Assembly: GCA_016218805.1 (NCBI GenBank)
Contig: JACRCW010000155.1
Coordinates: 1-49,691, forward strand
DNA: 49,691 nt
Source of the DNA: Deltaproteobacteria bacterium
GTDB taxonomy: Bacteria > Myxococcota > JACRCW01
Direction of reading: 5' to 3'
The notes beneath the pieces were generated by a model, which ran no database searches, was not told where the DNA came from, and worked only from the letters and a program-made list of their open reading frames with translations. Numbering within the stretch: position 1 is the first letter of the stretch; each line of letters opens with the position of its first letter. The position numbers and the translations under genes are program-made. Shown piece after piece: positions 1-25,800 of this stretch.

Positions 1-140
1 CCCAAGATCCGGAATCTCAGGCATCAACAGCGAGTCGAAAACTCCCCGTTGGAACAAGCCAAAACGCTGCTCAACTGAATTCTGTCGTCGGAAACCAACA
101 TGCCGCAGATCTTCTCAGACACAAAAGACTTTACACCACC
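1..140 (+). mobile_element. Probable right end of an insertion sequence (IS256-like terminal inverted repeat) with the last codons of an ORF
   Basis: AT-richer segment. Frame-1 ORF remnant PKIRNLRHQQRVENSPLEQAKTLLN* ends at 78. 118-140 GACACAAAAGACTTTACACCACC (rc GGTGGTGTAAAGTCTTTTGTGTC) resembles IS256-family termini as I recall them. There is an abrupt switch to GC-rich Ser/Gly-linker coding sequence at 141. Confidence 0.45.
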
Positions 141-142
141 CG

Positions 143-2014
143 GGCTCCAGCGCGGGTACGACTTCGGCGGCGGGTTTGTCCGCGTCAAGATTTGGATCGG
201 GTTCCAGCGGCGCGAGTTCCGCCCCGGCGTCGTCGACCGGTGCGTCTGCCAGCACCGCCGCGTCGTCGGCGTCCACGGGTGGGTCGTCAGGCCCCGCGTG
301 CGTTGCGGAGCCGCTCGCGGTGACCACCGTCGGGGACTGCGCGACGGAGGAGTGCGTCCTTTCGTTGGAAGAACTGTACCAAGTTGCATCCGGATCGGCG
401 GTGCTCGCCGCGCCTGGGTCACGAGTGATGTTCCTGAGCAACACTCACGGCGCCGGACCCCTCGTTCGAGTCAATGATGACGAGTCCGCTACCGTCCTTC
501 CGCCGACGCCCGTTCAGGGCCGCATCGAGCCCCTGGGGCCCGACGCCGTCATTGTTGTAGGTCAGGTGGCGGTATGGCAGTGGCGCGCGGCGGGATGGCG
601 AGAGGTCAGCGGACCAACGCCAATGCCGTCTGGGACTATCATGACCACCTGCCGCGATCCCACCGGCGGAAGAGTCTTCCTTGCCACCTACGCCGCCACG
701 TTCGCCGAAGTGACGAACGCCGTCGGTAGTGACGCTGTATTGAACTCAGTGTCCCTCACCGGCATCAGCGGCCTCGTCGAAGCATGCAGTTACTCGACGG
801 CCGGGGCGCTGGCGGTCCAAGCCGGTGGCGGGCTTTGGCTACGGGGCCCAGGGCAGGGCGCGTTTGCGCAACTTCCGTCCGTATTCGCTCCGGGCGCGGG
901 CCGCGAATGGTCATGGATTGGGAACCGGTTGGCGGAGTGCACGGGTGCTGGCGCGGTCCGTCTGTTCCAGGCGCCTGGCACTGATGAGTCGTTTGTCGAC
1001 GCCACGTTGCCCTCCGGTGGATGCAGTCTCCTTGCAAGCAGTCGTGACGATGGCGTGTACGCGCGGAGCAGCGGGACTTTGCTACGCATCAATCCGACCA
1101 CCGGCGCCGCGACGGAGATTGGATCGGAGCCAGAAAGCCGCAGCCTCGTTCACCTGCTGCGGGAGAAACCGACCGGCAGCGACCGTTTTGACGGGTTTGG
1201 CGCCTATAGAAAGGCTCAGGCGCACGCGGGTGGTGCGCTGCTCGCGGTCATCTCCGCAACCTGGACCATGGCGCTCGACCGGCAAGGCTGGCTTCTCCAG
1301 GACGAGGGCGCTCTCGAGTTCCTCGACGCATCCTTGACGGCGAGGCGGTGGCCGCCAGTGTCGGTCCCATTGGGCCCCTTGGGCACCGCCTTTGTCACGT
1401 CAGAGGGCGGCCTAGTCGTGGACGGCGCCGCGGCCGATCCTTGCACAGGAGCCGTGGGCGCACAGGCGTCCCAGGGGCAGGTCGTAGCAGCTTGCGGCGG
1501 CGCATCCTATTTCCAAGTGGGTGGGGTCCTTGAGCGACGCGTGGGCGCCGCGGTCTCACGTGTGCCCTTGGGCGTCCTTGACTGGTGGTGTGATTCGGCG
1601 GGGACGATCTTCTTCGCCTTGTCTTCGGGCGCGCTCGCAGAGTGGCCATTGGCCGAGCCGACGCCGATGGAACTGGTTCGATCGATGGAACCGCAATTCA
1701 TCGTCGGAGCTGATGCGGATCGCCTGTACTGGGCCAACCGGGTGGGCCTGTACGCCGTGAGGCGCAGCAGCGGGGAGCTGGAGTGGTTAGCGCCGGTGGA
1801 GCCGGGGGTGTTCGGCGCCCGACCCGCAACGATAGGCGCCGATGGCAGTGCGGCGTGCGTGAAGGCCGGGACCGGACTCCAATGCGCGTCCACCCTTCCC
1901 GAGGTATCCGCCGGCGTCGTTATACAAGGCAACGCGCGACTCTTCATCGTCGGCCGCCACGTCTGGGATGCGTTCAGCGCCACTCTCGTTCCCCTGTCGA
2001 GCTTCGGCCTGTGA
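143..2014 (+). pseudogene. N-terminally truncated exported/lipoprotein-like protein (Ser/Gly linker then probable beta-propeller)
   Basis: The long ORF begins inside an S/G/A/T-rich linker like the one after the lipobox of 9681-12521. It has no signal peptide or credible start. Beta-strand-rich segments such as LYWANRVGLYAV are present. The stop overlaps the next GTG (GTGA). Confidence 0.55.
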
Positions 2015-2731
2015 GCGCGCGCCTGACGACCGCGGTGGAGGCGGTTCATTTCCGTGCACTCCTCCGTGATGCGCGGACGTCCGCCCTCGCCGATGCCGAG
2101 GGCTACCGCGACGTGTTCGTGGCCATCGAGGCGGTTGGATCGTACTTGGCGAACGGCAGGACCCCACGCGGTCTCGGTGGATACGCAAAGCACATCGCGG
2201 GATTCATCGGGGATGACGCGCTGGCACACGAGGGCGGGCTCCTTGACGCGCTGCGTGTGGCCCGGAACGACGCCATTCACGAAGGCGCGGCCGCGCGCCG
2301 CATGACCGCGCAAGCCACCGAAGTGGCCCTGCGCCTGGAGGAAGCGATGGCGGAGCGCGCAAAGCTGCGTCGAGTCCAGGACTACATGGTGGCCAAACCC
2401 CGTGTGCGCGGAATCGTGGCACACGTTGAGGATGGTCAGGCAGGCCATGATGGTGCACCAGTTCTCAAGCCTCCCTGTAAGAACGAAGCGGCGGTGGATG
2501 TTGATCACGGATCACGCCGTCGTGGCCTACCGGGCCGGTCAACACGGGCGCGACAACCAGACCGTTGAGGAAGCGGCGGCCGGGGGCTTGGTGCTGGAGG
2601 CGGCACGAGTCGTCCGGCCAGGCGAACCCGTGGACTACAAGACTTGGGCCGGTGCGACCGGCCCTGCGGTGGTCGCCGATGCTGACGACGGCGAGATTCG
2701 CGGAATCCTGACCGCGTTCGACCTGCTGTGA
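2011..2731 (+). pseudogene. HEPN-like (RxxxxH) domain fused to a CBS-domain pair, split by a +1 frameshift at ~2395-2401
   Basis: GTG at 2011 is coupled to the upstream TGA. The helical N-terminal half has RNDAIH (2263-2280). VQDYMVA(N)P then VCAESWHTLRMVRQAMMVHQFSSLPV...IRGILTAFDLL is CBS-like and continues in the +1 frame (2402-2731). Confidence 0.7.
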
Positions 2732-2756
2732 CGCCGCCGGCGGGGGTCCGCCCTCG

Positions 2757-3176
2757 GTGGTCCTCAACATCAACGCCGAGGAGGAGCGCATCTCCCTGGG
2801 CATCAAGCAGCTGCACGAGGACCCGTGGGGACGCATCCCGCAGGCCTACCCGCGCGGCGCGCGCGTCAAGGGCAAGGTGCAGAAGATCACCGACTTCGGC
2901 GCGTTCATCGAGATCGAGCCGGGCATCGAGGGTCTGTGCCACGTGTCCGAGTTCGACGACGCCCGCGTGGAGAACGCGCGCGACTTCCTCAAGATCGGCC
3001 AGGACGTGGACGTGATGATCATCGACGTCGACGCCGAGGAGCGGAAGATCGGGTTGTCCATCAAGGCGGTCAAGAAGGCCGAGGAAGGCACGGATTACCG
3101 GGCCTATCTCGCTTCCACCAAGGGCGAATCCCGCGCCACGCTGGGTGACCTCCTGAAGGACAAGCTGCAGAAGTGA
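2757..3176 (+). pseudogene. rpsA: 3' fragment of 30S ribosomal protein S1 (end of penultimate S1 domain, last S1 domain and C-terminal tail)
   Basis: VVLNINAEEERISLGIKQL..DPW...VKGKVQKITDFGAFIEIEPGIEGLCHVSE...ERKIGLSIK...ATLGDLLK is typical of the RpsA C-terminus. It starts mid-domain with no RBS and shows high-expression codon usage. Confidence 0.92.
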
Positions 3177-3204
3177 ACCGCTGAGGACCGCGGGCAGTAC
3201 ACGG

Positions 3205-3248
3205 GCCCCCCGCGTCGTCGTCAGACGGCCGGGGGGCTTGGTGTTTGT
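3205..3248 (+). terminator. Intrinsic terminator downstream of the rpsA fragment
   Basis: GCCCCCCG...CGGGGGGC stem followed by TTGGTGTTTGT, about 30 nt after the stop. It overlaps the end of the convergent gene. Confidence 0.6.
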
Positions 3249-5071
3249 GGGCGCCGCCGTGACGCCAGCGCCAACAGCAGCAACCACGGCGGCACGCCGC
3301 CGCGGGCCGTGGCGCACGCACAGCGACGACCTGGCGGTGAGGCTTCCGTCTCGGGACCGGGGCCGCCGTCCACCGCAGGCGCGCCTGCATCGGCCGGCAG
3401 CACCGCGGCGTCCGGCGCGGAGGCCCCCGCATCGGAGGGGACGCCCGCGTCCACGCGCTCGCAGTCCGCTTCGTCCGTCTCACCGTCACAGTCATTGTCC
3501 AGGGTGTCCGCGCATTGCTCCGGCGTGGCAACGTCCCCCACGCACGCGGGGAGGAAGTCCGCGCACGCCACCACGCCCATCCCGCAGTAGTCCGCGTCCA
3601 CCGGCGCATCACACGCCTGCCCAAACGCAAGGCCCTGCCAGGTGAGCCCCTCCGTCTCGTCGACGTCGCCGTCGCAGTCATCATCCGCGCCGTTGCCGCA
3701 CACCTCCGCGGCGCCGGGCGTGAACGGACGCGTGTCACACCGCAGGCCGGTCCCGTCCACGGAGCACGCGTACAGCGAGACGTTGCACCGCCCCGCGTCC
3801 ACCCCCGGGTCACACACGCGCCCCAACTCCGGGAATGCCGCGGAGTCGGAGCGGCCGTCGCAGTTGTCGTCGTGGTCGGCGCCGTCACACCGCTCGGGAC
3901 TGGGCGTGTCCCCCGCGCACGTGAGCTCCGTCAGCGTTCCGCACGCCACGTGGCCGCGCGCGCAGGAGTCATCATCCAGCGGGGAATCACATGGCGCGCC
4001 GTGCTCCAGCCCGTTCCACGTCAGCCCGTTGACGGGGAGCGTGTCGCAGTCCTGATCCTTGTCGTCGCACAGTTCGGGCGCGGAGGGATGCGTGTCCGGG
4101 TCCGCGTCATCGCAGTCCAGTCCGTTTGTCACCGGGTTCACCAGCCCCGCCGCAAGCGCGCTGGCCACGTCACACACCACCACGCCGGTTGCCTGCAGGT
4201 CACCCCACTGATCCCCGTCTGCGTCGCTGTAGTAGCGCCGCAGGCGCGTGCCTTCGTCCGCCGCGCCGTCACAGTTGTCATCCCGCTGGTTGCACCGTTC
4301 CGCCGCGCCCGGGTGGATGGCCGGGTCCGCGTCGTCGCAGTCACCGGTGCCCTGCAACGGATCCGTGAACGCGCACCCGGTTTGACTTACGTACCCGTCG
4401 CCGTCCGCGTCCACGCAGTTCGTCGTCGTCACGGTCACCGGGACGCCGCACGCCGCCGGTCCGCCCGCGGTGGTGCCGCATTCCGTCGCGTTGGCCGTGT
4501 TGGGCGTGTCCGACACCGCGGAAAGCGGGCGCATCTCACCGCGCGCCCTCCGCACGGAGGCAAACACGCGCAGGTTCCCGTCTGCGCCCGCCGGCAGGAC
4601 CGGCGGTTGCCAGAGGGCGGTCCAGGTGACCTGGTGGCGGCCGGCTGCCAGCGCGCTGGGGCGCTTCACCGCGTGCGTGGCTTCCGCGCCGCTCACCCGC
4701 ACCCAGGCGGCTTCCGCCGCGGGCACGGTGAACTTCCCTGACGTGGTGGGCCGCGCGGCATCCCCGGCCGCCAGGTTGAAGCCGGCTTCAAAGGGCGTGG
4801 TGCCGTTGCCGCCGGGGAACCAGTGCGCCCGCACGCGCACCGTGTACGTGGAGGCCGGACTCAGCGGCATCACCGCGGCGTTGTCCTGCGCATCCAGAAT
4901 GGCGACGGAGACGCGCAGATCACGGCCCAGTGTCCGGTGGCACGACAGGCACGTCACGCCCGCCTGTTTCCCTGAACGCCCCGTGATGCCCTGCGGCACC
5001 GCCCGCGCGGGCAGGACCCCTGCACAGGTCAGCGCCCCCGCAAGCGCCCACATCCTCAACGAACTGTGCAT
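3221..5071 (-). CDS. Secreted protein: N-terminal CxxCH-containing Reeler-like domain, MopE-type metal-binding Cys/Asp repeats, MYXO-CTERM anchor
   Basis: Signal peptide (PARA). GITGRSGKQAGVTCLSCH. Repeated DCDD..PxxHPxAxExC..xDxxCDG. C-terminus CACATARGGVPPWLLLLALASRRR. Confidence 0.8.
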   Translation of the reverse strand: MHSSLRMWALAGALTCAGVLPARAVPQGITGRSGKQAGVTCLSCHRTLGRDLRVSVAILDAQDNAAVMPLSPASTYTVRVRAHWFPGGNGTTPFEAGFNLAAGDAARPTTSGKFTVPAAEAAWVRVSGAEATHAVKRPSALAAGRHQVTWTALWQPPVLPAGADGNLRVFASVRRARGEMRPLSAVSDTPNTANATECGTTAGGPAACGVPVTVTTTNCVDADGDGYVSQTGCAFTDPLQGTGDCDDADPAIHPGAAERCNQRDDNCDGAADEGTRLRRYYSDADGDQWGDLQATGVVVCDVASALAAGLVNPVTNGLDCDDADPDTHPSAPELCDDKDQDCDTLPVNGLTWNGLEHGAPCDSPLDDDSCARGHVACGTLTELTCAGDTPSPERCDGADHDDNCDGRSDSAAFPELGRVCDPGVDAGRCNVSLYACSVDGTGLRCDTRPFTPGAAEVCGNGADDDCDGDVDETEGLTWQGLAFGQACDAPVDADYCGMGVVACADFLPACVGDVATPEQCADTLDNDCDGETDEADCERVDAGVPSDAGASAPDAAVLPADAGAPAVDGGPGPETEASPPGRRCACATARGGVPPWLLLLALASRRRPQTPSPPAV

Positions 5072-5150
5072 TGGGCACGGTGTTAACGAGGAGCGGATCG
5101 CTTCACAACGTCGCTTGCGCGATCACCCGGGCATGCCGGACGCTGAGGCC

Positions 5151-6587
5151 ATGAGACATGCGTTCGTCGTGGTGGTCACGCTCCTGGCTGGGTGTGGGGT
5201 GCGGCCACCGTGTTCCACCGATCGCGATGGCGATGGCGCGCTGGCCGCTGCGTGCGGGGGGGCGGACTGCGACGACGAGGACGCGTCCGCGTTTCCCGGC
5301 GCCACGGAGGTCTGTGACGGCGCCGACAACAACTGTGACGGCGTCATGGACCGCGGGCCGGGAACGATGTGCCTCCAGTTCGCACTCACGGGCGAACGCG
5401 ATGACAGCGAACTTGGCTTCCGGTTCTCTCCGCCGCTTGACGTGGACGGTGACGGTGCGGCGGAACTCGCGGTGGGGGCGCGGGTGTCACGGTCACGGCC
5501 GGACCCGGAGGCGTACGTGGCAGCGTGGTCCACCGTTGATGGCGCGCTGGTGCGCACGTGGCGAACGACGCTGAAGGATGCGCTGTTTGGGCACGCGGTG
5601 GTGCTGGGGCCGGACGTTGACCGTGATGGGCGCGCGGACGTGATCGCAGCGGCGCCCAACGCGGAACCGGAGGCCGGGCGGTTCATCCCGCGCGTAACGG
5701 CGTACTCGCTCAGCGCGGAGGCCCCACTGTGGACGCGCGAATACGAAGAACACTCCGCCGTGGGCTGGCACCTGTCCCGCGCGTGGGACGTGGACGGTGA
5801 CGGCGTGGAGGACGTGCTGGCGGGGGACCCGTCTGGGCCGCCACGTCGCGTGCTGTTCCTATCCGGGGCGGATGGCAGCGTCCTGCGCACGTTTGCGGAG
5901 CCTCCGTCCGCCGCGGCGTTCGGGTGGTTCGTTCACGGCATTGGTGACCAGGACGGGGACGGTGACCGGGATGTCCTCGTCGGCGCACCGGGAGCAGACA
6001 CGCCGTCCGCGTTGGTCGCGGGAGCGGTGTTTGTCGTTTCTACGCGGAGCGGGAGCGTGCTGCGGCGGATGGATGGAACCGTTGCTGACGGGCTCTTTGG
6101 TGACGTCGTCGCCGCGCTGCCGGACCTGGATGGTGATGGCCTGGAGGAGGTCGTAGTCGGTGCGCCAGGCAGCGGACGCGTGGAGCGCCCGCCGCCGGGG
6201 AGGGCGTTTGTGTTTCTGTCCACCGGGGTGCAGCGCTTTGCGTGGGACGCGCGCCAGCCGGATGATCTGTACGGGCGCATGGTGGCGCATGCGGGTGACG
6301 TGGACGGTGACGGCGTGGCGGACGTGGCAGTGAGCGCGCCGTTGCACCATGACCGCACGGGCGCTGCCGTCGGGCGGCTGGAGGTCCGGTCCGGCCGGAC
6401 CGGCGAGGTTATTCTGGAGGAGAGCGGAACGGCGCCGGAGGGGTACTTCGGGTGGCACGTTGAGGCGGCCGATGCGGTGGGGCGCCACCGTCGCCCCGGG
6501 CTGGTGGTCTCCGCCCATCACGCATCCGCGGACGGGTTCACCAACAACGGTTGGGTGGGCGTGTACCTCGTCGGCGGACTGCGGTGA
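5151..6587 (+). CDS. FG-GAP repeat (integrin-alpha-like propeller) lipoprotein with one MopE-type repeat
   Basis: ATG 5151 after GAGG. Lipobox LLAGC. DCDDEDASAFPGATEVCDGADNNCDG. About six DxDGDG..D/E+++GAP repeats with FG motifs. Confidence 0.85.
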   Translation: MRHAFVVVVTLLAGCGVRPPCSTDRDGDGALAAACGGADCDDEDASAFPGATEVCDGADNNCDGVMDRGPGTMCLQFALTGERDDSELGFRFSPPLDVDGDGAAELAVGARVSRSRPDPEAYVAAWSTVDGALVRTWRTTLKDALFGHAVVLGPDVDRDGRADVIAAAPNAEPEAGRFIPRVTAYSLSAEAPLWTREYEEHSAVGWHLSRAWDVDGDGVEDVLAGDPSGPPRRVLFLSGADGSVLRTFAEPPSAAAFGWFVHGIGDQDGDGDRDVLVGAPGADTPSALVAGAVFVVSTRSGSVLRRMDGTVADGLFGDVVAALPDLDGDGLEEVVVGAPGSGRVERPPPGRAFVFLSTGVQRFAWDARQPDDLYGRMVAHAGDVDGDGVADVAVSAPLHHDRTGAAVGRLEVRSGRTGEVILEESGTAPEGYFGWHVEAADAVGRHRRPGLVVSAHHASADGFTNNGWVGVYLVGGLR

Positions 6588-8102
6588 TCAGGGGACGTGC
6601 ACCGCGCGCTCACGCACCAGGGAGATGAGGAACACCCGCAGCGCACCCTGTTGATCAAAGGAGAGCGCGCGGAAGGCGTCGCGTGCGTCCGCGGCCTCGC
6701 CACCATGCGCTTCTATCGCCGCGTCGAACGATGCCGCCCGCCCGTCGTAGAACCAGGGCCCACTATTGGCCAGGCCCCACAGGCGGCGCGTGAGGTACGT
6801 GCTGCGGTCAACGCCGCGGTCCACGTGGAGCGACGCGGCCTCGGGTCCCAGATCGTGACGCTTGAAGTCGCTGAAGGCCCACACCGCGTAGCCGGCGGCG
6901 GCGGGGTCGTACGCGGGGCGCGGTGACTGTGCGTACCGGGCCAGGTTGATCTCCAGCGTGCCGTGCGTGGACGCAATCCGCAGGACCGGGTCCCGGAGGA
7001 ACACGACCGGCACGTGGCACGACGTGCAACCGATGGAGTCGAACAACGCGTAGCCCAGCGCAAACTCGTCCGTGTAGTCGCGCGGCACGGGCGCGGGGAG
7101 GTTCGTCGCCGGGGGACCCAGCGGCGGCAGCGGATCCGGTGCGCGGACAATGGGTGTTTCGGCCAGTCCCACGTACGCGGTGAGGGCCGTGAGTTGACCA
7201 TCGGTGAACTCGTGGGTGACGCCGTCCTCGTCGGGATCGGGCCCGTTGCCAAGCGCGTCGGACTGGATCCCGAAGTGCACGTGCAAAGACCCGGTGATGA
7301 ACTCCCGCAGCGTGGTGAACGTCCCCTTCCAGCCAAACGGTTTGACGACGAGATCCGCGTCAACGCCGTCCAATCCGGAGGTGTCCACGGTTCCGTCCGC
7401 ACGCGCAGTGATCACGCCGAACGGGATGCCCTTGGCGCCCAGCATGCGCGCCACCGCAACTCCGGATACGCGCGCCTCTTGCACGGCGGCATCGCGGATG
7501 GACTGCAACTCCGCGCTCATTTCCTCGGCCACGGTCTGCGCCCAACCGGCCCCCAGCAGCGCGGGCGGGTTGCGCGCATCCGCGCTGGTGACGTCGTCAC
7601 CATCACCCAACAGGTAGCTGTTGTCCGTGACGGCGCCCGCTCCAAGGGGTCCGCCGCGCCAGTGACAGGAAGCGCAGGTGGTGGTGTCCGGCCCGCCGCG
7701 CTCGCCCGCGTGCACGCGGCGGAACGGGTTGGTCCCATCGTGTGCGCCGTGGCCCAGTCCCTCGTCACGGGTGAACTCGTGCTCAAACAGCAGCCGTCCC
7801 GCGGTGGCCAGCTCCGTCGGGCACACGCGGCCCTCCGCAACGTCGCGATCGGGGAGGCGCTCGCGGGTACGGCGCAACAGCCAGCCGGGTTCCACCTCGT
7901 CGTGCAGGCGGGCTTCGCGTTGCAGGCCGCGCCAGCGGAAGGCTTCACGCGCTCCATCCATGGACAGGCGGTCCATGAGGGCGGGCTCAGGGCACGGGAG
8001 CGCAACGGGCCCTGCGTCCACGCTGGGGTCGTCATGGTTCTGCGGTACGCAGGCGGCCAGGAAGGCGACGCAGGCCAGCGCGGGAAGCGCGCGGTTGCGC
8101 AT
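6588..8102 (-). CDS. Di-haem oxidoreductase (DHOR-like, cytochrome c peroxidase superfamily) lipoprotein, copy B
   Basis: ATG 8102 overlaps the upstream TGA. Lipobox FLAAC. CASCH and CTSCH. RNPPALLGAG, PFGWKG, FSDFKRHDLG, LWG..PWFYDGRA, AIEAHGGEA. Confidence 0.85.
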   Translation of the reverse strand: MRNRALPALACVAFLAACVPQNHDDPSVDAGPVALPCPEPALMDRLSMDGAREAFRWRGLQREARLHDEVEPGWLLRRTRERLPDRDVAEGRVCPTELATAGRLLFEHEFTRDEGLGHGAHDGTNPFRRVHAGERGGPDTTTCASCHWRGGPLGAGAVTDNSYLLGDGDDVTSADARNPPALLGAGWAQTVAEEMSAELQSIRDAAVQEARVSGVAVARMLGAKGIPFGVITARADGTVDTSGLDGVDADLVVKPFGWKGTFTTLREFITGSLHVHFGIQSDALGNGPDPDEDGVTHEFTDGQLTALTAYVGLAETPIVRAPDPLPPLGPPATNLPAPVPRDYTDEFALGYALFDSIGCTSCHVPVVFLRDPVLRIASTHGTLEINLARYAQSPRPAYDPAAAGYAVWAFSDFKRHDLGPEAASLHVDRGVDRSTYLTRRLWGLANSGPWFYDGRAASFDAAIEAHGGEAADARDAFRALSFDQQGALRVFLISLVRERAVHVP

Positions 8103-9673
8103 CACGGCACCAGCGCGCGGTCGGAGCGCGTCAGTGAGAGGAGGAAGACGCGAAGCGCGCGGCGTTCCTCGTCCGGAAGCGCGTTGTACGCATCGCGCGA
8201 CGCGGCCGCCTCGCCGCCGTGCAGGCGGATGGCCTCGTCTACCGTCGTCGCGCGTCCGTCGTGCAGGAAGGGCGCTGTATCGGCCAGGCCCCACAGCGGG
8301 CGCGTCAGGAACACGGTGGCCGGGATGTTTCCCTGCGGCCCCGGGGACGCAAGCGCCTCGCCCATGTCGTGCCGGCGCAGGTCGCTGAAGAGGGTGACGT
8401 TGTACGTGGGCGTCAGTGACGCGGAGGTGGGCTCCACCTTGGGGCGCTCCCCGTCCCGCGCCACGTCGACAAAGAGCGGCGGCGAAAGGCCCCGCCACGG
8501 GTCCGCCTCCGGGCGCACTTCCAGGACGGGATTCCGCAGTTCCAGGGACGGCACGTGGCACCCGGTGCAGCCGACTTCGCTGAGCACGTTGCGGCCGCGC
8601 GCGTGGGCAATGGCCAGCCCGGTGTCCTGCGGAATGCGGATGACCGGGACCTCCAACTGCGCCAGGTAGAACACCATGGTCGTCAGCATGCCGTCGTCAA
8701 GTTCGAGCGAGACGCCATCGCGGTCGGCATCGTATGCGTCGCCATCGCCGTAGAGCGCGGCGGGGAGGTCTCCGCGTTGCAGCGCCTGTTCGGCGCGCAC
8801 GGAGAGAATGCCCAGGTGGATGCGGAAGGATTCCTCCGCCATGGCGCGCAGCGTGGGGGAATGGCCCTTCCACCCGAACGGCTTCACGACGAGATCCGCG
8901 TCCACGCCACGCACGCCCGCCGTGTCCACCATGCCGTCCGCCGCCACGCTGATGGACCCGAACGACACACCCTTGCTGGTGAGCGCGTAGGTTCGCGCTG
9001 CGCCGGCGGCCACGGCGGCGTCACGCTGGGCCACCAGGTCCGCGGTCATCTCCTGCGCCAGCCGCTGCACGGCGCCCAGGCCCAGCAGGTGCGGTGGATT
9101 GCGCACGTCGGCGGAACGCGTCCGCCGTCCATCACCGCGGAGGAACGCGTTCTGCGTGGCGTGACCCGCGCCGTTGAGCCCGCCTTTGAAGTGGCACTCG
9201 GAGCAGCCCAGCGCGTCCGGCCCGCCAAACTCCCCCTGGTGCACGCGCCGCGCGTTGGGCGCGGCGTGCGGTCCCGCCAGCATCCCGTCACGCCCACCCA
9301 GTCCGTTGCCCAGCCCGTGCTCCGGGCGGAAGGACAGTTCAAACAGGTCATCCCCAAGCACAAACAGCGCCTCCGGGCCCAATCCAACGCGGTCCAACGC
9401 GCCCTGGTCGCGGATGGCGTGGAAGTACTGTTCGCCGGGCTCCTTCTGGTCCAGCCACACGTCCGCGTCCCGTCGCCAGCGCAGGTCCACCGCAAGGTCC
9501 ACCTGCCGGCGGATCTCCGCGTCGTCGGGCGGGTCCACCGCGTAGCCCAGCCACGCCTCGTCTGCGGACGTGAGCGCGCGCTGGATGGCGGCCGCAGTCA
9601 CAAGCTGGGGACCGCCGCCGGGAGCGGGCTGGCACCCCGCTCCAACAAGGAGCATCAGCGCGGCGGGGCGCAT
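8102..9673 (-). CDS. Di-haem oxidoreductase (DHOR-like) lipoprotein, copy A
   Basis: Lipobox GAGC. CSECH and CTGCH. RNPPHLLGLG, PFGWKG, FSDLRRHDMG, TRPLWG..PFLHDGRA, AIRLHGGEA. Confidence 0.87.
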   Translation of the reverse strand: MRPAALMLLVGAGCQPAPGGGPQLVTAAAIQRALTSADEAWLGYAVDPPDDAEIRRQVDLAVDLRWRRDADVWLDQKEPGEQYFHAIRDQGALDRVGLGPEALFVLGDDLFELSFRPEHGLGNGLGGRDGMLAGPHAAPNARRVHQGEFGGPDALGCSECHFKGGLNGAGHATQNAFLRGDGRRTRSADVRNPPHLLGLGAVQRLAQEMTADLVAQRDAAVAAGAARTYALTSKGVSFGSISVAADGMVDTAGVRGVDADLVVKPFGWKGHSPTLRAMAEESFRIHLGILSVRAEQALQRGDLPAALYGDGDAYDADRDGVSLELDDGMLTTMVFYLAQLEVPVIRIPQDTGLAIAHARGRNVLSEVGCTGCHVPSLELRNPVLEVRPEADPWRGLSPPLFVDVARDGERPKVEPTSASLTPTYNVTLFSDLRRHDMGEALASPGPQGNIPATVFLTRPLWGLADTAPFLHDGRATTVDEAIRLHGGEAAASRDAYNALPDEERRALRVFLLSLTRSDRALVP

Positions 9674-16263: not shown

Positions 16264-16731
16264 ATGGTCATCTACGACCTTGGTTGCCGCGACGGACACC
16301 GCTTTGAGGGCTGGTTCCAGGACCTCGCGGCCTTCCAGGCCCAGCACAAGGACCGCCAGCTTGAGTGTCCCTCCTGCGGGTCACATGACGTGGAGCGCCT
16401 GCTGACCGGCAGCGCCATCCGCCGCTCCGCCGCGGACAAGGCCGGCACGCCGGACACGCCGCGCCCGGCGGTGGCGGAACCCGCCGGCGGCGGCGAGACC
16501 GTGCACCTGTCACCCGCGCAGGTCCGCGAAGCGCTGGGGACCCTGGCGGCGCACCTGCGCGCCAACAGCGACGACGTGGGTGAGCGCTTCTACACGGAGG
16601 CGCGCCGCATCCACCTGGGGCTCGCCCCCGAACGCGCGATCCGCGGCACCACGACGGACGAGGAGGAGCGGAAGCTGGTGGAGGAGGAGATTCCGTTCCT
16701 CAAGATCCCGGTGCCCGCGCAGGATGATTGA
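16264..16731 (+). CDS. DUF1178 family protein
   Basis: MVIYDLGCRDGHRFEGWF, CPSCGS, DVGERFYTEARRIH, ERAIRG. Confidence 0.9.
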   Translation: MVIYDLGCRDGHRFEGWFQDLAAFQAQHKDRQLECPSCGSHDVERLLTGSAIRRSAADKAGTPDTPRPAVAEPAGGGETVHLSPAQVREALGTLAAHLRANSDDVGERFYTEARRIHLGLAPERAIRGTTTDEEERKLVEEEIPFLKIPVPAQDD

Positions 16732-16796
16732 ACGGCGCCAGCGCGCGCCGCGCGGCGCCGGGTGGCGCCGGCATCCCACACGCCCGGTCGTTTCCG

Positions 16797-16824
16797 TTGA
16801 GTGAACTCCGGGTGGGTCTATACT
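16797..16824 (+). promoter_or_regulatory. Sigma70-type promoter for the giant gene
   Basis: TTGAGT-16 nt-TATACT, about 57 nt upstream of ATG 16881. Confidence 0.55.
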
Positions 16825-16880
16825 GCCCGGCCGGTTCCGTGCCCGTCGGGGGCGCGGACGATCCGGCGGGCCAGGCGAGG

Positions 16881-19800
16881 ATGCGCAGGCAGTGTGCACT
16901 CGAGGGGACTTTGGTGACCGCCGCGCTCCTGGCGCTGGCGTTGCCCGCGCGCGCGTCCGTCGGTGGGACGCCGCCCGCGCAGCTGGCCGCGTGGCAGGTC
17001 CAGGGCAGCGCCAACACGGCGGGCGCCTCCATGATGGTGTCGGACGGGTTCGGCGTGAACATCGCCCTGCTGCCGGACAGCAACGCGTTCCTGGCCGCCG
17101 TACCCGGTGACGCGGTGGTGGCGGGGGCGTGGCTGTTCTGGAGCGGCAGCGCGGACCCGTTCTTCGGCACGGACAACGAGGTCCGCCTGCTGACCCCCGG
17201 CGGCGGCAACTACCTCAACCTGCGCACGGACCGCTGCGAACCCGGCGAGACCCCGTGCGACCTGTCGCAGAACCGCTGCCTGTCGGTGCGCACGCCCACC
17301 ATTGACATGGACTTCTACTACTGCCGGCGCAACATCACCGGGCTGCTGGCGCGCATTCCGCGCGGGCAGCTGGGCGGCACGTACACCATGGGGGACATGC
17401 AGGCGTCCGTGGGCCTGACGGAAGGCGCACCGGGCCAGTGCTCCCCCGGGGATCCCAACTGCCAGGCCAAGTACGGCGGGTGGAGCATCGTCGTCGCGTG
17501 GCAGTCGGCGTCGTCGGTGGTGGTGCGTGACGCGGTGCTGTTTGACGGGTTCTTGTACGCCGACGAGGACTACGGCAGCCCCGGCGGCGGTTCCGGCATC
17601 AGCTCCGCGTTCACCATGACGGGGATCAACGCCCGGCCCAATGCCCGCGCGGAACTGTCCATGTTTGCCTTGGAGGGCGACCGGCAGCTGGGCGTGCCGC
17701 CGCAGGATCAGCCGGGCAACCCGCTGTTCTGCACCACGTGCCTGGACTTCCTGGAGATAAGCACGCCGTCCCACGCCGCGCGCTGGCGCGTGACGGATGG
17801 GACGGGACTCAACCCGTCGGGCAACCTGTTCAACAGCAGCAACAAGGGCGGCGGGGATTCCGTTGGCGTGGACGTGGATTCGTTCAACGTGGGCGTGGGT
17901 GGCGTGGAGGCGGTCATCAACGGCGGGGACACGTCACTCACGTTTGTCATGGGCAGCGGAGACGGGCGTGTGGGCGGGGACAACGGCGGCGGCGAACTGT
18001 TCTTCCTGGGCTACCTGTTTGTGGCCCTGGACACGGACTCCCCGCGCCTGGCCAACGCGGGCACGTTCAAGACCGCCAGCCTGGTGACGGCCTCTCCGGG
18101 TGACGTCATTGCCTACACCATCCGCGTCACCAATGACGGCGCAGCCAACGCCACCAACGTGCGCGTCACCGACGCGCTGCCCGCGGGGACCACCTACGTG
18201 GCCGGCAGCACCACCAACACCTGCGGCGCCCCCAGCGGTGACGTGGGCGGCACGTCCCGGCTGTTCCAGCCCGGCGGCGTCAACCTGGGGACCATTGGCA
18301 TCGCCAGCCCGGGCAACTTCTGCGAAGTCCGCTTCCAGGTCCGCATCAACACCACGTTCACCGGCACGGTCCGCAACGTGGCCAGCATCTCCGCGGACGA
18401 CGTGCTGCCCTTCCCGGTGGAGGCGTCCACCACGGTGACCGCGCCGGTACTGGCGCGCTTTGAGAAGACGGTGTCCGGCGCCACGGGCGGTGGCGTGGTC
18501 CCGGGCGCCACGCTGACCTACACCCTGACGCTGTTTGGCAACGCGTCCCAGAACGTCAACGGCGCCAGCGTGGTGGACGTACTGCCCGCGGAACTGCAGG
18601 GCGTTGCCGTGACGTCACGCCCGGCCGGCTCCACGCTCATTTCCGACGTCACCACCGGCCGCCTCCAGGTGGACGGCATCAACGTCCCCGCGGGGGGCAC
18701 TGCCGTCATCGTCTTCACGGCCAGCGTGCGTGCCGGCACCGCGGACGGCACCGCCGTGCGCAACCAGGGCAGCGTGACCTTCCCCGGCGGCGGCCCGATG
18801 CGGTCCGATGATCCGTCCACCGCGGTGGCGGCGGACCCGACGACGGTGACGGTCCGCAACCGGATCGATCTGACCACTTCGCAGAAGACTGTGGTCAGTC
18901 CCGCGTCACTGGTGGCCAGTCCCGGCACTGCCATCCGGTGGCGCATCCGCGCGATCAACAGCGGCAACCGCTCCGCCACCGTTGCCATTGCGGATGACCT
19001 GCCCGCCAACGTTGGCACGTGCACCATCATGGCGGCCCCTGCGGGGGTCACCTGTCAGCCCGGAGGGGTGAACGGCACCGGCCGCGTCGTCGGGACGGTG
19101 ACGCTGGCGGCCGGCGCCACGGCGGACGTGGAGTTCACCGCCACCGTGCTGGCGTCCGCGCCGGATGGTGCCACGCTGGTGAACCGCGCCACGCTGACGC
19201 CGCAGGAAGACGTGACGCGGGTGGTCACCGTGACCGCTCCTGCCGTGACCGTGCGCAACCGGCCGGATGTCACCACCAGCACCAAGGCCGTGCTGGACGT
19301 CAACGGCGCGCCCACGCGTCCCGGGGAGACCGTGCGGTACACGGTGACCGTCACCAACAACGGCACGCGCGCGGCCACTGGCGTCGTCGTCACAGATGCC
19401 ATCTCAGCCAACCTGGCCATTGTGACCGTGGGGCAGGGCGGCATTGCTACGGGTAACAACGTCACGTGGAACGTGGGCAACCTGGCCGTGGGGCAGACCG
19501 TCACGCGGACGGTGGACTGCCGGGTGAACGCGGGCGTTGCCAACGGAACGGTGATCGGAAACCGCGCGCGCATCGCCTCACCGGACCTGGCGGCACCGTT
19601 TGACACGCCGCTGGTGAACTTCACCGTCACGGCGGCGCCGGTCATTGCCGTCACCAAGACGGTGACGGACGTCAACGGAGCGCCTGCCCGGCCGGGGGAC
19701 ACCGTCCGCTACACCCTCACGCTCACCAACACCGGCGACGGGAACGCCACCAACGTGGCGGTGACCGATCCGGTGGATGCGTCGCTCACGTTTGTATCCG

Positions 19801-22800
19801 CCACCGCTGGGGGCGCGCTCAGTGCCGGGAATGTCCGCTGGACGGTGGCCACGCTGGGACGGGGTGCTGCTTCCGCGGTCACGCTGACCTTTGACGCGCG
19901 CATCCGCACTCCGCTGGACAACGGGACGGTGGTCTCCAACCAGGCCAGCGTGACGTCCACGGAGATCACCACCGCGGTGCGCTCTGATGATCCGGGTCTC
20001 CCCGGCGCCACGGACCCCACGCGTTTCACCGTGACCAGCGCGCCCGCAGTGGCCATGACCAAGACCGTCACCGACCTCAACGGCGGGGACACGCTGCCGG
20101 GCGAAGAGGTGCGCTACACGCTCACGCTGACCAACACGGGTGACGCCATCGCGCGCAATGTGACGGTCACGGACGCGGTGGACGCGCGGTTGACGTCACT
20201 GGTGGCCGAAACCGGTGGCACCGTGGCGGGCCAGACCGTGACGTTCACCGGTGGCGGGTTGACGGCGCTGGCACCGGGCACGCCCGTCACGCTGACCTTC
20301 CGCGCGCGCGTGGTGTTCCCGCTGGCCAACGGGACAGTCATTCCCAACCAGGCGCGTGCCGCGGTGGGCGCCGTCACCGTGCTCAGCAATGACCCATCCA
20401 CGCCCGCCGCGCTGGACCCGACCAACCTGCTGGTCCGCTCCCGGCCGGCGCTCACCGTCACCAAGCGCGTCAGCAACCTCACCACGCCCGGCAGCGTGTA
20501 CCGCCCGGGCAACCGCATTGCGTATGACCTCACGGTTCGCAACACCGGCACCGAAAACGCGCTCAACGTTGTCATCACCGACGTGCTGAGCGCCAACCTG
20601 GTGAACATTGACGCCGGCGTGAACGGCACGCTGACGGGGCAGACGGTCCGGTATGACCGGACCACGTTGGCCGCGCTGGCCAGCGTGGCGCCCAACACGT
20701 CCCAGACCGTCCGCATCCAGGCCACCATCCGCCTGCCGCTGGACAACGGCATCACCATCAGCAACGTGGCCACGGGTACGGCGGATACGCTCACGCCCGT
20801 CCCGTCTGACAACCCGGACACGCCCGCGGTGGGTGACCCCACGGTCATCACCATCACCAGCGCAGCGGTGTTGTCAGCCACCAAGACGGTGACGGACCTC
20901 AACGGTGGCGCGTTCGCGCCGGGGGATTCCGTCCGTTACACCATCACGGTGCGCAGCACGGGCACCGCCAACGCACGCAATGTTGTCATCAGTGACCCGG
21001 TGGACGGGCGGCTGCGCAACCCGGTGCCGTCCAACGGTGGCGTGGTGGGCGGCGGTGGCATCCGCTGGGACGCGGCGGTGGTGCCGGCGCTCGCGGTGTT
21101 GTCACCCACGCAGTCCGTCACCGTGACGTTCACCGCAACCGTCCAGACTCCGCTGGATGACGGGACGCTCATTGCCAACCAGGCGCGCATCACGGCGGAC
21201 ACGCTGGCCGCGCTCCTCAGTGATGACCCCAACACGCCGGTGGCGGCGGACCCCACCACCATCCGCATCACCTCGGCCGCGGACCTGTCCGTCTCCACCA
21301 AGGAGATCCTGAACGCGTCCGGGACGCGCATCACGCAAGCCACGCCGGGGCAGGACCTGCAGTACCGCATCCGCGTCCAGAACCGCGGCAACGCCACCGC
21401 GCGCAACGTGGTGGTGGACGACGTGCTTCCGGCGCAGTGGACCACCCCGGTGGTGGTGTCCGGAACGCTGGCGGGGTCCACGGCCACGTGGACCGGTGCC
21501 ACGGTGTCCGGGCTGGTGGCGGTGGCGCCGGGTCAGCAGGTGGACCTGGTGGTGCGCGGGCGGCTGGCGCTGCCGCTGGATGACGGGACGGTGGTGGGGA
21601 ACCAGGCGCAACTGTTTGTCAACAACCGTACGGGCGCACCCTTCACCAGCGACGATCCTGCGACTGCCGCGCCCGGTGACCAGACGCGCTTCACGGTGCG
21701 CTCCGCGCCGCTGATCTCCGTGTCCAAGACGTTCACCGACGTCAACGGCGGCGACGTGGAGCCGGGAGACCAGGTCACCTATACCGTGTCCATTCGCAAC
21801 AGCGGCACGGCCAACGCGCGCAACGTGGTGGTGACGGACCCCCTGGCCGGCGCGCTGCAGTTTGTCTCCGCGGGGCAGGGCGGCACGCTGACGGGCAGCA
21901 CCGTGACGTGGAACAGCGCGGGGTTCCCGGCGCTGGCGGCCATTGCCCCGTCCGCCGCGGCGGTCACCGTCACACTGACCGCGCGCGTGCGCACCACCAC
22001 CGCCAGCGGGACGCTGGTGTCCAACCAGGCCAGTGTCGCCGCCACGGGCGTGGCGGCCGTGCTGTCGGATGACCCGGCGCTGCCCGGGCCGCGTGACCCC
22101 ACGGTGTTCCGCGTTGTCGCGCAGCCGCACCTGGTGGTCACCAAGGCGCTGCCCGCCGGCGCACCGCGCATTGCGTCTCCCGGGGACAGCATCACCTACC
22201 AGTTCTCCATCACCAACACCGGGTCGGCCACGGCCACCGGCGTCACGCTGCGGGATGAGCTCCCCTTTGGCGTGGCGTTCACCAGCGCCACCGGCGGTGG
22301 AACGTTTGACGCGCTTACGCGCACAGTCCGCTGGGCGCTGCCGGACGTCACGCCGTTTGGCGGCGAAGCGCGGGTCACGCTGGTTGTCGTGGTGGATGAC
22401 ACCGCAACGGACGGCCTGACGCTGCGCAACCAGGGTTTTGGGAATGCGCAGGGAACGGTGGCAACCGCGTCCGACGATCCTGCGACGCCGGCGGCGCTGG
22501 ATCCGACGGTGGTGACGGTGAGCGCCATTGTGGACCTGTCCACGGCCGCCAAGACCGTGACGGATGAGAACGGCGGCCTGTTGGTGCCGGGCGACGTGCT
22601 GGCCTGGCGCATCACCGTGCGCAACACGGGCAACACCGCCGCCCGCAACGTGACCGTCACCGACGAGTTGGACCCCGCGCTGGAGGTGGTGGAGGTGCAG
22701 GGCGGCGGCACGGCGTCCGGCAACACGGTGACGTGGGCGTCCGGGGGCGTGCCGGCGTTTGCGCGGCTCAGGCCGGCAGACGGGGAGGTGGCGCTGGTGG

Positions 22801-25800
22801 TCCGCGCGCGTGTCCGCGCCACGGTGGCGGACAACACCAGCGTGGCCAACCAGGGCGTGGTCCGCAGTAACGAATTCCCCGCCGGCATCCGCACGGACAA
22901 CCCCGCCACGACGACGGTGGATGATCCAACCGTGGTGACCGTGCGGGCACCGCGCCTGACCGTCACCAAGCGCGTGGTGGACCAGAACGGCGATCCCACC
23001 ATCCCGGGCGACCGCATCCGCTACTCCATCACCGTGCAGAACGTGGGCGGCGCACCCGCCGCGGCGGTGGAGGTTGATGACGATCTTCCGGCGGAGCTGG
23101 TGGAGATCGCCGTGGGCCAGGGCGGCACGCTGACCGGGCGGCACGCGCATTGGGACCGGACGACCACGCCCGCCCTCACGTCCGTGGCGGCCGCCGTCGC
23201 GGTGGAACTCACCGTGGACGCGCGGGTGGAACCCGGCGTCGCGGGCAACGCGGTGCTCTCCAACCAGGCCAGTGTGCGTTACCCCGGACTCCCGGCCGCG
23301 CTGCTCAGCGACGATCCGTCGACACCCGCGGGGGCGGACCCCACGGTGCTGCGGCTGCGCGGCGCGCCGTCGTTCGCGGGTTCCACCATCACCATTGACG
23401 GGAATCCGCCGGTGGTGAAGCCGTTGGATCCCATCCGGTTCACCATCACGCTGGTGAACGGAGGCACGGCCGTCACACAAGGCGCGGTACTGCGCGTGAC
23501 GCCGGACCCGTCCCTGGTCAGCCCGGTGGCGGAGGACGGCGGCATCCCGGTGGGGGGCGTGTTGACGTGGGACGCCTCCACGCGGCCCGAACTGGTCCGT
23601 ATGCTCCCCGGCCAGTTCATTGTTGTGCACTTCAATGCGCGCGTGGCGTCACCGCTGCCGGACGGAATCACCATCAGCCAGGCCGCGTTCGCGCGTTCGG
23701 TGGAGGTCGCGGATACGCGCATCGGCCCGGTCACCGTGGCGGTGTCGTCGCGGCCGCGCTTTGTTGCGTCCACGCTGGTGGTGACGGATGCCAACAGCGG
23801 TGAAGTGGAGCCCGGTGACCTGCTCAGCTACCGCCTGACCGTGCACAATGACGGCTCGGCCACGGGACGCGCGGTGTCCGTGGTGCTGCCGGTCCCGTCT
23901 GGAACGCGGTACGTCCCGGGCAGCACGCGCGTGGGAGCCGGCGCGCCCGCGGACGTGGGAGACGTGGGGGCGCTGGCAGTGGGCGCGGCGCTGGGTGACG
24001 TGGCGGCGGGCGCATCCGTGGTGGCAACGTTTGACGTGCGCGTGGCCCGCGAAACCCCGCGCGGGTACCGGGTGAGTGCGCAGGCCGCCATCACCGACGA
24101 GGTGGCGGGCACGGTGGCCAGCGACGACCCGCGCACTCCGGCGATCCTGGGCGACCCGACGGATGTGGTGGTGGGCGGTGGCGCGTTCCTGGCGGCCACG
24201 CTGATGGCGGACCCCAACCCAACCGGTGCGGACGGCGCGACCACGCTCCGCCTGGTGGTGGAGAACCCCGGGTCGCTGCCGGCGGCGGATGTGCTGGCCA
24301 CCGTGCCGTTGACACCGTCACTGGTGGTGGAAGCGGGAAGCCTGACGGTGGGCGGGTTGCCGGTGAGCGACGCTGACGACGGAGACGCGGGCGGTGCCAA
24401 CGCACAGCGGTTCTACGTGCGCATGCCGCTGGTGGAGAGCGGCCAGGCCGTGGTGGCCACGCTGCGCGTGCACCTGGCAGGGGGACAGGACCGGGCCGAA
24501 CTGCAGGGCACGTTGTCCCGCCCGGCGGCCATGGACGTCCCGACGGATGGCGACCCGGCGCGCGCGGGTGCGCAACCCACCGTGGTGGTGCGGCCCGGTA
24601 CGGCTGCCGACCTGGGTGGCAGTGCCGTGACGATGGTGGACGTGAACGGTGGAAGCCTGTTGGCCGGTGACATGGTGCTGGTGACGTACACGCTGGCCAA
24701 CCGCGGTGGCGTGGCCGCGCGCCTGTCTGACGGCACGGGTTTCAACGCTTCGCTGGATTCGCGTCTGCAGCTGGATGACACCTCCGTGGCGCCGGCGGCG
24801 CAGTTTGTTGCGGCGGACGGTGGCTCACGCGTGACCTCCGCGCCGGGCGCGCCGGGACAGACGATTGAACCGGGCGCGTCACTGACCATCACGTTCCGCG
24901 CACGGGTGCGGACGCCCACGGAGAGCGGCCGCGAGATCCGCACGCAGGCGCTGGTCACGCTGCAGGACGGGACGCAGTTCACCGTGGGGCCCGCGTCCCT
25001 GCGGGTGGGCGGCGCGGTGGGCACGTCGTCGCTCAGAGGCGTGGTGTTTGAGGACGTGGGCGGCAACAACCGGCGGCTGGATCCGGGCGTGGACAAGCTG
25101 GTGGCGGGTTACACCGTGGCACTGGTCCCGGCGGAGGCCGGTCCCCGCGGCACCGCGGTGCTGTCGGCCGTGTCGGATGACGACGGGAAGTACGCGCTCG
25201 CGTCGGTGGCGCCCGGTGAATACCGCGTGCGCGTGCTGTCGCGCGGTGGTGCGCAGTTTGCGGAGCGCGGCCTGGTCCTCTCCGCCGGCGAGCAGCGCAC
25301 GGAGAACCTGCGCATTGACCCCAGTGGCGTCATCTATGATTCGCGCGACGGGCACCCGCTGGCTGGCGTGCGCGTGACGCTGTTCCGTGACGACGGCGAT
25401 GATTCCGACGTGAACGACGCGGTGCTGCCGGCGGACCAGTTGCCGGCGGGCCAGCAGGACCAGGTGACCGGGCCGGACGGGCGCTACCGGTTTGACCCGT
25501 TGGCGGGCCGCTACCGCCTGGGGCTGGACGGACCGCAGCCCACGTCCGTGTGGCCGTCCGCGGTGATCCCCGTCTCCAATGAAGACCACGTTGCCAACCC
25601 GCTGGGCAGCTTTGCCCGCACGGATGCTGACGGCAACGTGGTCCCTGACGCGCAGCCGCGGTTGGACCGCGAGGTGCGTTACTACCTGCGGTTTGACCTG
25701 ACCACGGGGCGCGAAGTGCTGCACAACCACGTGCCCGTGGACCCGCTGGCGTCGGTGGTGCGCCTCACCAAGCAGGCCAACAAGCGCGTGGTCAACGCCG

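Follow-up and report, generated by a model that had tools for sequence, protein, structure and literature searches.

In Escherichia coli, the 3′ end of icd is the integration site of e14 and phage 21, which bring their own copy of that gene end, and icd stays whole. After integration, the displaced 3′ icd fragment occupies the far junction. The two copies are distinguished mainly by silent substitutions, and an integrase gene lies beside the attachment site, from which the element can excise. A reduced form of such an arrangement is represented by the CIMEs of Streptococcus thermophilus, which are att-flanked, integrase-less ICE remnants at the 3′ end of fda, and the corresponding ICE family is present in related strains. 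In Campbell-type insertion-duplication and in homology-facilitated illegitimate recombination, a homology of a few hundred base pairs is duplicated around the insert with no dedicated recombinase; when the homology is a 3′-terminal gene segment, the result is one intact gene and one 5′-truncated copy. We know of no documented natural example of the Campbell type in an essential ribosomal gene. Among ribosomal-protein genes, the 3′ end of rpsR is the integration site of the PICI SscPIC2865, an element flanked by 15-bp direct repeats that encodes a tyrosine recombinase and has the full gene set of a satellite (PMC8407400).

The locus described here is an insertion in rpsA of a deltaproteobacterium of the phylum Myxococcota. 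The window, a stretch of 49,691 nucleotides that is the entire contig C127, belongs to a metagenome bin of 6.43 Mb in 170 contigs that is 92% complete. Read together with contig C21 of the same bin, the locus comprises, in order, a complete rpsA, its terminator, an XRE-type regulator gene, a lipoprotein gene split by an insertion sequence (IS), a HEPN-like/CBS gene, a second rpsA tail with its terminator, and the chromosome. The insert measures 3,239 bp when the IS is not counted, contains three genes, and has on each side a 495-bp direct repeat of the rpsA 3′ end. It is a real, well-resolved insertion scar, not a prophage and probably no active mobile element. The features in the window are the following:

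1..140, no strand assigned: right end of the IS, a multi-copy repeat; likely end of the transposase frame, with a stop near 78
141..148, no strand assigned: 8-bp target-site duplication of the IS, CGGGCTCC, the reverse complement of C21 155–162 (8 of 8 positions)
149..2014, plus strand: 3′ part of the IS-split lipoprotein gene, 621 codons and stop of a 702-codon gene
2011..2731, plus strand: HEPN-like/CBS gene, frameshifted, with the change of frame near 2396–2402; family of about 250 residues
2732..2756, no strand assigned: 25-nt spacer between the last gene of the insert and the repeat; right insert junction, placed by alignment
2757..3176, plus strand: orphan rpsA 3′ fragment, codons 428–566 and stop, comprising the tail of S1 domain 5, the whole of domain 6, and the C-terminal tail
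3177..3251, plus strand: rpsA 3′ untranslated region with terminator hairpin and tail TTGGTGTTTGTGGG, where the repeat terminates
3221..5071, minus strand: MopE-motif cysteine-rich lipoprotein, the convergent chromosomal neighbor (Pfam Cu-binding_MopE, E 3.9e-30)

Similar to e14 and phage 21 at icd, the insert brings the 3′ end of its target gene, the housekeeping gene is whole, and the displaced fragment lies on the far side. The differences are that the insert is only 3.2 kb long and is without a recombinase, that the repeat (495 bp) is about three times longer, and that the target is rpsA. Like the CIMEs at fda, the locus is a short integrase-less block bracketed by the 3′ repeats of a housekeeping gene; unlike the case of the CIMEs, no cognate element or integrase was found for rpsA, and to our knowledge none is known. 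As in Campbell-type insertions, the insert is flanked by duplicated homology, with an intact gene and a 5′-truncated copy, whereas at rpsA no donor and no intermediate, either circular or linear, was observed. With SscPIC2865, the locus shares a ribosomal-protein gene 3′ end as target and flanking direct repeats, but it is without the 15-bp repeats, the tyrosine recombinase, and the satellite genes.

The orphan fragment (window 2757–3176) consists of 139 open codons followed by a stop and contains a single Pfam S1 domain (E 1.1e-20). Its first codon corresponds to codon 428 of 566, within the tail of the fifth S1 domain, and its protein sequence is 97–99% identical to the C terminus of the full-length rpsA product of C21. 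The preceding, unrelated gene has its stop at 2729–2731, 25 nt ahead of the repeat. The initial annotation, which described the last 139 codons of rpsA as orphaned in the middle of an S1 domain 25 nt past an unrelated gene, is correct in both coordinates and content. With 139 of the 566 codons, the window copy is a fragment that lacks the full set of S1 domains; full genes are found on C21 and on C162. As had also been noted from the sequence, the frame is undecayed and a terminator follows: 3′ of the stop is a GC-rich, 15-pair hairpin with a T-containing tail (−22.1 kcal/mol, z −1.63), although a strict terminator scan left it uncalled. The GGG-TCCG-CCC hairpin reported at the junction did not survive comparison with shuffled sequences, 57 of 200 of which were equally stable (z −0.47). 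At its distal end, the repeat includes the final nine codons and the stop of the convergent MopE-motif lipoprotein gene. The C-terminal end of this lipoprotein (window 3221–3260) is a hydrophobic stretch followed by RRR, an ending that we take to be MYXO-CTERM-like.

The 5′ part of rpsA, which had been expected elsewhere in the assembly, is on C21. There, rpsA (2558..858, minus strand) is complete, with 566 codons that align over the full length with rpsA of 40 of 41 genomes, and the host is not left with a truncated S1, one of the outcomes first considered. The direct repeat pairs window 2757–3251 with C21 1277–786 at 94.3% identity over 495 bp (blastn). Homology starts abruptly at GTGGTCCTCAAC, continues through the stop codon and the hairpin, and ends after the terminator tail GTGTTTGTGGG; the sequences beyond the repeat on both sides are unrelated between the window and C21. 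The C21 gene is thus finished by a second 139-codon 3′ end that differs from the orphan at two residues, a replacement C terminus having been another of the outcomes first considered. Functionally, the accompanying suggestion that the last S1 domain is swapped as a mobile unit is empty here, the two tails being only two residues apart.

A second full rpsA is present on C162 (66916–68586) of the same genome and is 67–69% identical to the window fragment. This paralogue has a long branch and an atypical amino-acid make-up, and its counterpart in the nearest relative, G001, is on contig C514. The C21 gene and its G001 counterpart represent a short-branch, conservative form, and the C162 gene and its G001 partner a faster-evolving form that was born within the family. 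The presence of two rpsA paralogues in the lineage implies some redundancy of S1. Several other families of the phylum likewise have two rpsA-like genes. In E. coli S1, the two C-terminal OB domains are reported to be dispensable for growth (bioRxiv 10.1101/2021.10.20.465233), and by analogy insertions in this part of the gene may be tolerated more easily.

C21 and the window are connected by the IS. Window 1–140 recurs without a difference at the start of contigs C114, C119, and C130, and in metagenome run X1 this IS end has a depth of 110–127 versus 22–27 in the flanks, an approximately 5-fold difference that corresponds to about five copies. The left end is located at C21 1–154 and is common to the start of C15, giving four right-end contigs and two left-end ones, C21 at 1–162 and C15 at 1–149. 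An imperfect terminal inverted repeat (19 of 25 positions) is formed by the last 25 nt of window 1–140 and the outward end of C21 1–154. As listed above, the 8-bp target-site duplication of the window matches C21 at all eight positions; the C15–C130 pair has a different duplication, CCTGCCGC, that also matches at 8 of 8 positions, with a frame open across the join. The other six pairings of left and right ends are alike at no more than four of eight positions, and an 8-bp duplication is found in both of the two reconstructable IS copies. Across the join between C21 and the window, the lipoprotein frame is unbroken, with 702 codons and zero stops. The terminal inverted repeat, the target-site duplication, and the unbroken frame together show that C21 and the window adjoin on one molecule with one IS between them. 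The bin does not contain the interior of the IS, and of the transposase frame only about the first 32 and the last 25 codons are assembled. An exact scan of the genome contigs with a 39-nt piece of the IS end gave 0 matches, and BLAST in five relatives returned nothing.

Other sites occupied by the IS include an RHS-repeat gene and, as judged by eye, a tyrosine-recombinase gene beside a tRNA-like stretch (start of C114) and another transposase-like frame (start of C119). An identity of window 1–140 with a group II intron or another known RNA element was rejected, as a search of window 1–3400 against Rfam gave only a sub-threshold chance match to an miRNA model.

The insert begins, beside its rpsA-proximal end, with an XRE-type regulator gene of 87 codons on the opposite strand, the product of which matches Pfam HTH_31/HTH_3 and phage repressor families (PHROG E 8e-07). 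The lipoprotein gene follows. Its first 81 codons, on C21 397→155, encode a signal peptide, an LAGGC lipobox, and a Ser/Gly linker; the 702-codon protein belongs to no Pfam, PHROG, or PADLOC family and has no homologue besides itself among 5.8 billion proteins. The third gene, at 2011–2731, belongs to a family with 494 homologues at E ≤ 0.001, mostly of 240–270 amino acids (phmmer, 1.84-billion-protein library). Residues 23–141 of the homologue P0004 align with frame 1 (2014–2400) and residues 147–257 with frame 2 (2402–2728), and the family profile gives separate matches at 2026–2400 and 2396–2728. The frameshift is present in the same sequence in independent Logan contigs. In the N-terminal half of the family, R84, N85, and H89 are invariant and form an R-N-x3-H pattern, presumably a HEPN motif. 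The C-terminal half is CBS-like, with Pfam CBS matched in three of nine homologues. The family is rare in the phylum, occurring in 3 of 200 other genomes, and is not matched in PADLOC; the sole full-length copy among those genomes, in G192, is located among housekeeping genes with no link to rpsA.

Two of the three insert genes are therefore broken, the lipoprotein gene by the IS and the HEPN-like/CBS gene by its frameshift. The GC3 of the insert genes is 0.74–0.80, in the lower quartile but inside the range of the genome (median 0.86, 5th–95th percentile 0.69–0.92, for 168 long frames on five contigs). The borders of the insert are compact, lying 38 and 25 nt past stop codons. No integrase, excisionase, phage, or conjugation gene was found among the three genes with Pfam, PHROGs, and PADLOC, and the unassembled interior of the IS may carry more than a transposase. 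In the window as a whole, the 33 frames scanned include no recombinase, transposase, or phage family in Pfam, in agreement with the absence of an integrase noted from the outset. Beyond the three insert genes, 28 further frames likewise contain no integrase, transposase, phage, or conjugation gene. The remainder of the window contains ordinary chromosomal genes. At 16728–32180 of the window is a single frame of 5,150 codons for a giant surface protein that combines 11 DUF11 repeats with CARDB-like, Ig-like, and OmpA domains. The genome is high in G+C, encodes MopE-motif and FG-GAP lipoproteins and many Ser/Thr kinases, and has a myxobacterium-like look.

The two copies of the rpsA tail differ in 19 codons, of which 17 differences are synonymous and 2 are replacements. 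For this tail sequence, 71–77% of random single-base changes would be replacements, and the probability of two or fewer replacements in 19 is 1e-8. On the branch leading to the orphan, with rpsA of G001 as the outgroup, there are approximately seven changes in a 6:1 ratio of silent to replacement (P = 0.0017). This silent-site bias shows that the orphan was not copied in place and then left to drift; it either diverged inside the working rpsA of another lineage or is itself selected. Within the repeat, which is diverged by about 6%, are perfect tracts of 29, 111, and 48 bp. Between the copies there is no difference in the last 34 codons (P = 0.003 for this run of codons) or in the distal 48 bp, and these long identical tracts point to exchange between them. 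The proximal 29 bp are also identical, with a chance probability of approximately 0.14 that is not significant alone. In length (495 bp) and similarity, including the perfect tracts, the repeat is sufficient for RecA-type recombination. As to which copy is native, codon usage shows no significant difference (Fisher p 0.33, 0.22, and 0.09), and polarization with G001, which shares 10 versus 7 states with the two copies, is not decisive. Two other origins of paired repeats were rejected by eye: a template/variable repeat of a DGR, as the copies do not differ at adenines and a reverse transcriptase was not seen, and Xer/dif-type integration, as the repeat is without an AT-rich, dif-like core.

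The surroundings of rpsA were compared with those in relatives. Searches with the proteins flanking the repeats against G001 (two loci), G002, G003, G027, and G034 matched only rpsA itself and an ABC1 kinase upstream of it, and the full rpsA that had been expected next to the 3221–5071 gene in relatives was not found. The ABC1 kinase lies upstream of rpsA in both C21 and G001, and the synteny on that side is common to the two. On the other side, the terminator tail TTGGTGTTTGTGGG is also present 3′ of rpsA in G001, a member of a different genus, and the two genomes diverge beyond it. The conservation of the rpsA unit thus stops at the terminator tail, which would be the natural limit of homology between a donor and a recipient, and this is where the repeat stops. 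Directly 3′ of rpsA, G001 has different accessory-looking genes, indicating that the spot is variable in the family. In locus L039 of that genome (contig C195), a small antitoxin-like frame (approximately 8400–8590) and an HTH plus TPR protein (6750–8420) lie 3′ of the terminator tail.

There is no second case of an orphan rpsA tail in the phylum among the 150 matches listed of 357, from 401 genomes of which 348 have a match, a sampling that includes only one genome from the same family. Five matches in short frames were examined, and three proved to be at contig ends and two to be frameshifted full genes. Second rpsA matches in five genomes are full-length paralogues or, in one case, a gene cut by the start of its contig, and the match in G195 is an ordinary full-length frame. 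The rpsA C-terminal tail pattern gave 0 matches in metagenome contigs. An arrangement that could represent a donor, with rpsA followed by the insert genes, was not found in the loci of six relatives, none of the same genus, or in metagenome contigs, and no empty site and no closer relative were found among the relatives and metagenome contigs searched.

On balance, the chances are about even that DNA of a sister species, with its own rpsA tail, recombined into the chromosome through rpsA homology. The two repeat copies would have diverged within the working rpsA genes of two related lineages, and the incoming DNA would have consisted of the donor rpsA tail and the three genes lying 3′ of it. 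Fixation would have occurred through rpsA homology, by a single crossover of a circularized fragment (Campbell type) or, alternatively, by an insertion that was anchored by homology and joined illegitimately at its far end, at codon 428. Survival would be limited to products in which rpsA remains whole, which is secured when the homologous piece reaches the end of the gene and would explain the extent of the repeat up to the end of the transcription unit. Now decaying, in this view, the insert has no recombinase of its own, and the orphan fragment is most likely an unexpressed by-product. A homology-driven entry is favored by the combination of a xenologous copy, an insert that is fully read and free of a recombinase, and long perfect tracts; the below-median GC3 of the insert and the differing region 3′ of rpsA in G001 also count toward it. 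Against it, no donor genome was found among the relatives and metagenome contigs searched, and the geometry of the locus and its compact borders with an XRE-type regulator at one end suit a site-specific element equally well.

A remnant of such a site-specific integrative element, that is, a CIME-like attL/attR scar left by a tyrosine or serine integrase targeting rpsA near codon 428, is the main rival and a less likely one. The last 139 codons and the terminator carried by the element would have rebuilt rpsA, and the integrase and most genes would later have been deleted, or the cassette would be moved in trans by an integrase encoded elsewhere. These elements have as their hallmark direct repeats by which the target gene is restored, and the initial annotation had read the orphan fragment as the attR of an element in rpsA. 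That reading stands insofar as a distal copy of the direct repeat brackets inserted DNA, but the prophage or large island it envisaged is replaced by an insert of 3,239 bp with three genes. Likewise, the second 3′ copy that was to be tested for was found, its identity with the orphan over the first 29 bp from 2757 being what an att core would show, and the adjacent integrase was not. The phage repressor matches of the XRE-type regulator and the accessory-type cargo, exemplified by the rarity of the HEPN-like/CBS family, fit an element of this type. Ribosomal-protein gene 3′ ends are also known as docking sites, as for the PICI at rpsR (PMC8407400). These points are set against the absence of an integrase or excisionase from the 3.2-kb insert and the rest of the window, the lack of a second orphan rpsA tail among the matches listed in the phylum, a literature search in which rpsA was not found named as an attachment site, and the length of the element-borne gene end, which at 495 bp would be unusual.

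It is unlikely that small cassettes without an integrase dock repeatedly at the end of the rpsA transcription unit, mobilized in trans by a recombinase that has so far not been linked to it. Were this the case, the long element-borne gene end would be the way in which a cassette rebuilds an essential gene. In a bolder variant, the displaced tail would be kept and translated as a free single-domain S1 protein.

Retention and translation of the tail also figure in another explanation, which is decidedly improbable: that the orphan is a local copy of the genome's own rpsA tail, arising by partial duplication in place or from a 5′-truncated cDNA of the abundant rpsA mRNA and kept by selection as a predicted single-S1-domain protein translated from the GTG at 2757. 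The end of the repeat at the terminator tail is the expected end of an mRNA, the frame is intact with a purifying type of divergence, and the GTG that opens the fragment is 25 nt past a preceding gene on the same strand. However, the copy lies in the same orientation 3.2 kb past its parent and brackets a compositionally atypical block of three genes, which random copying does not predict. The scan of its sequence gave neither a convincing ribosome-binding site nor a promoter-like one, and the one clear replacement in the orphan puts Ala at a position where six full-length relatives have an invariant Pro, a loss that counts against selection on the orphan.

The contiguity of the locus was compared with Logan contigs, which are assembled separately from the bin, for window 1–8000 in four runs of one groundwater study. 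The best-matching run may be the bin's own sample, and the support is that of a second assembler and not of a second sample. In run X1, a Logan contig of 2,705 nt covers window 112–2816 with 0 differences, and in run X2, one of 611 nt covers window 2208–2818, also with 0 differences; both span the 2757 junction by approximately 60 nt, which provides the spanning of the junction that had been looked for. The two variants of the repeat have depths of 26.8 versus 27.4 in X1, and one variant accounts for 4.16 of 9.06 in X2 and for 5.61 of 9.2 in X3. No excised circle and no empty site were found among the rows listed for contigs of the four runs, and contigs drop rare forms. An assembly or binning artefact, in the form of a chimeric contig or two strains in one bin, is hardly credible, even in a 170-contig metagenome bin in which many contig ends are shared repeats and 147 further pairs of repeats occur with a length of at least 200 bp and an identity of at least 88%, given the mismatch-free Logan contigs across the junction in two runs, the equal depth of the variants in three runs, and the IS target duplication and continuous lipoprotein frame that tie both contigs to one molecule.

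These other repeat pairs of the genome are dispersed or local and include C40 14168–15428 with C56 21686–22943, C159 11600–12221 with C19 49633–50253, C42 9490–10428 with C78 6686–7620, and, within C24, 137–652 with 24968–25483. Several pairs are approximately 94% identical and end at a stop codon, with different upstream parts of the genes. They may be recent paralogues, or may reflect more exchange with a lineage of approximately 94% identity.

In methodological terms, the target duplication of an IS joined two metagenome contigs, which allowed the whole insert to be read and a prophage to be excluded. For annotation, the warning is that neither a sizeable mobile element nor the disruption of an essential gene follows necessarily from an orphan 3′ gene fragment. 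If rpsA tails did prove to be recurrent sites for cassettes, this would indicate an unrecognized recombination system. For the organism itself, the locus illustrates that foreign DNA can enter the body of a core ribosomal-protein gene and persist there, if it brings a working replacement for the part that it displaces.
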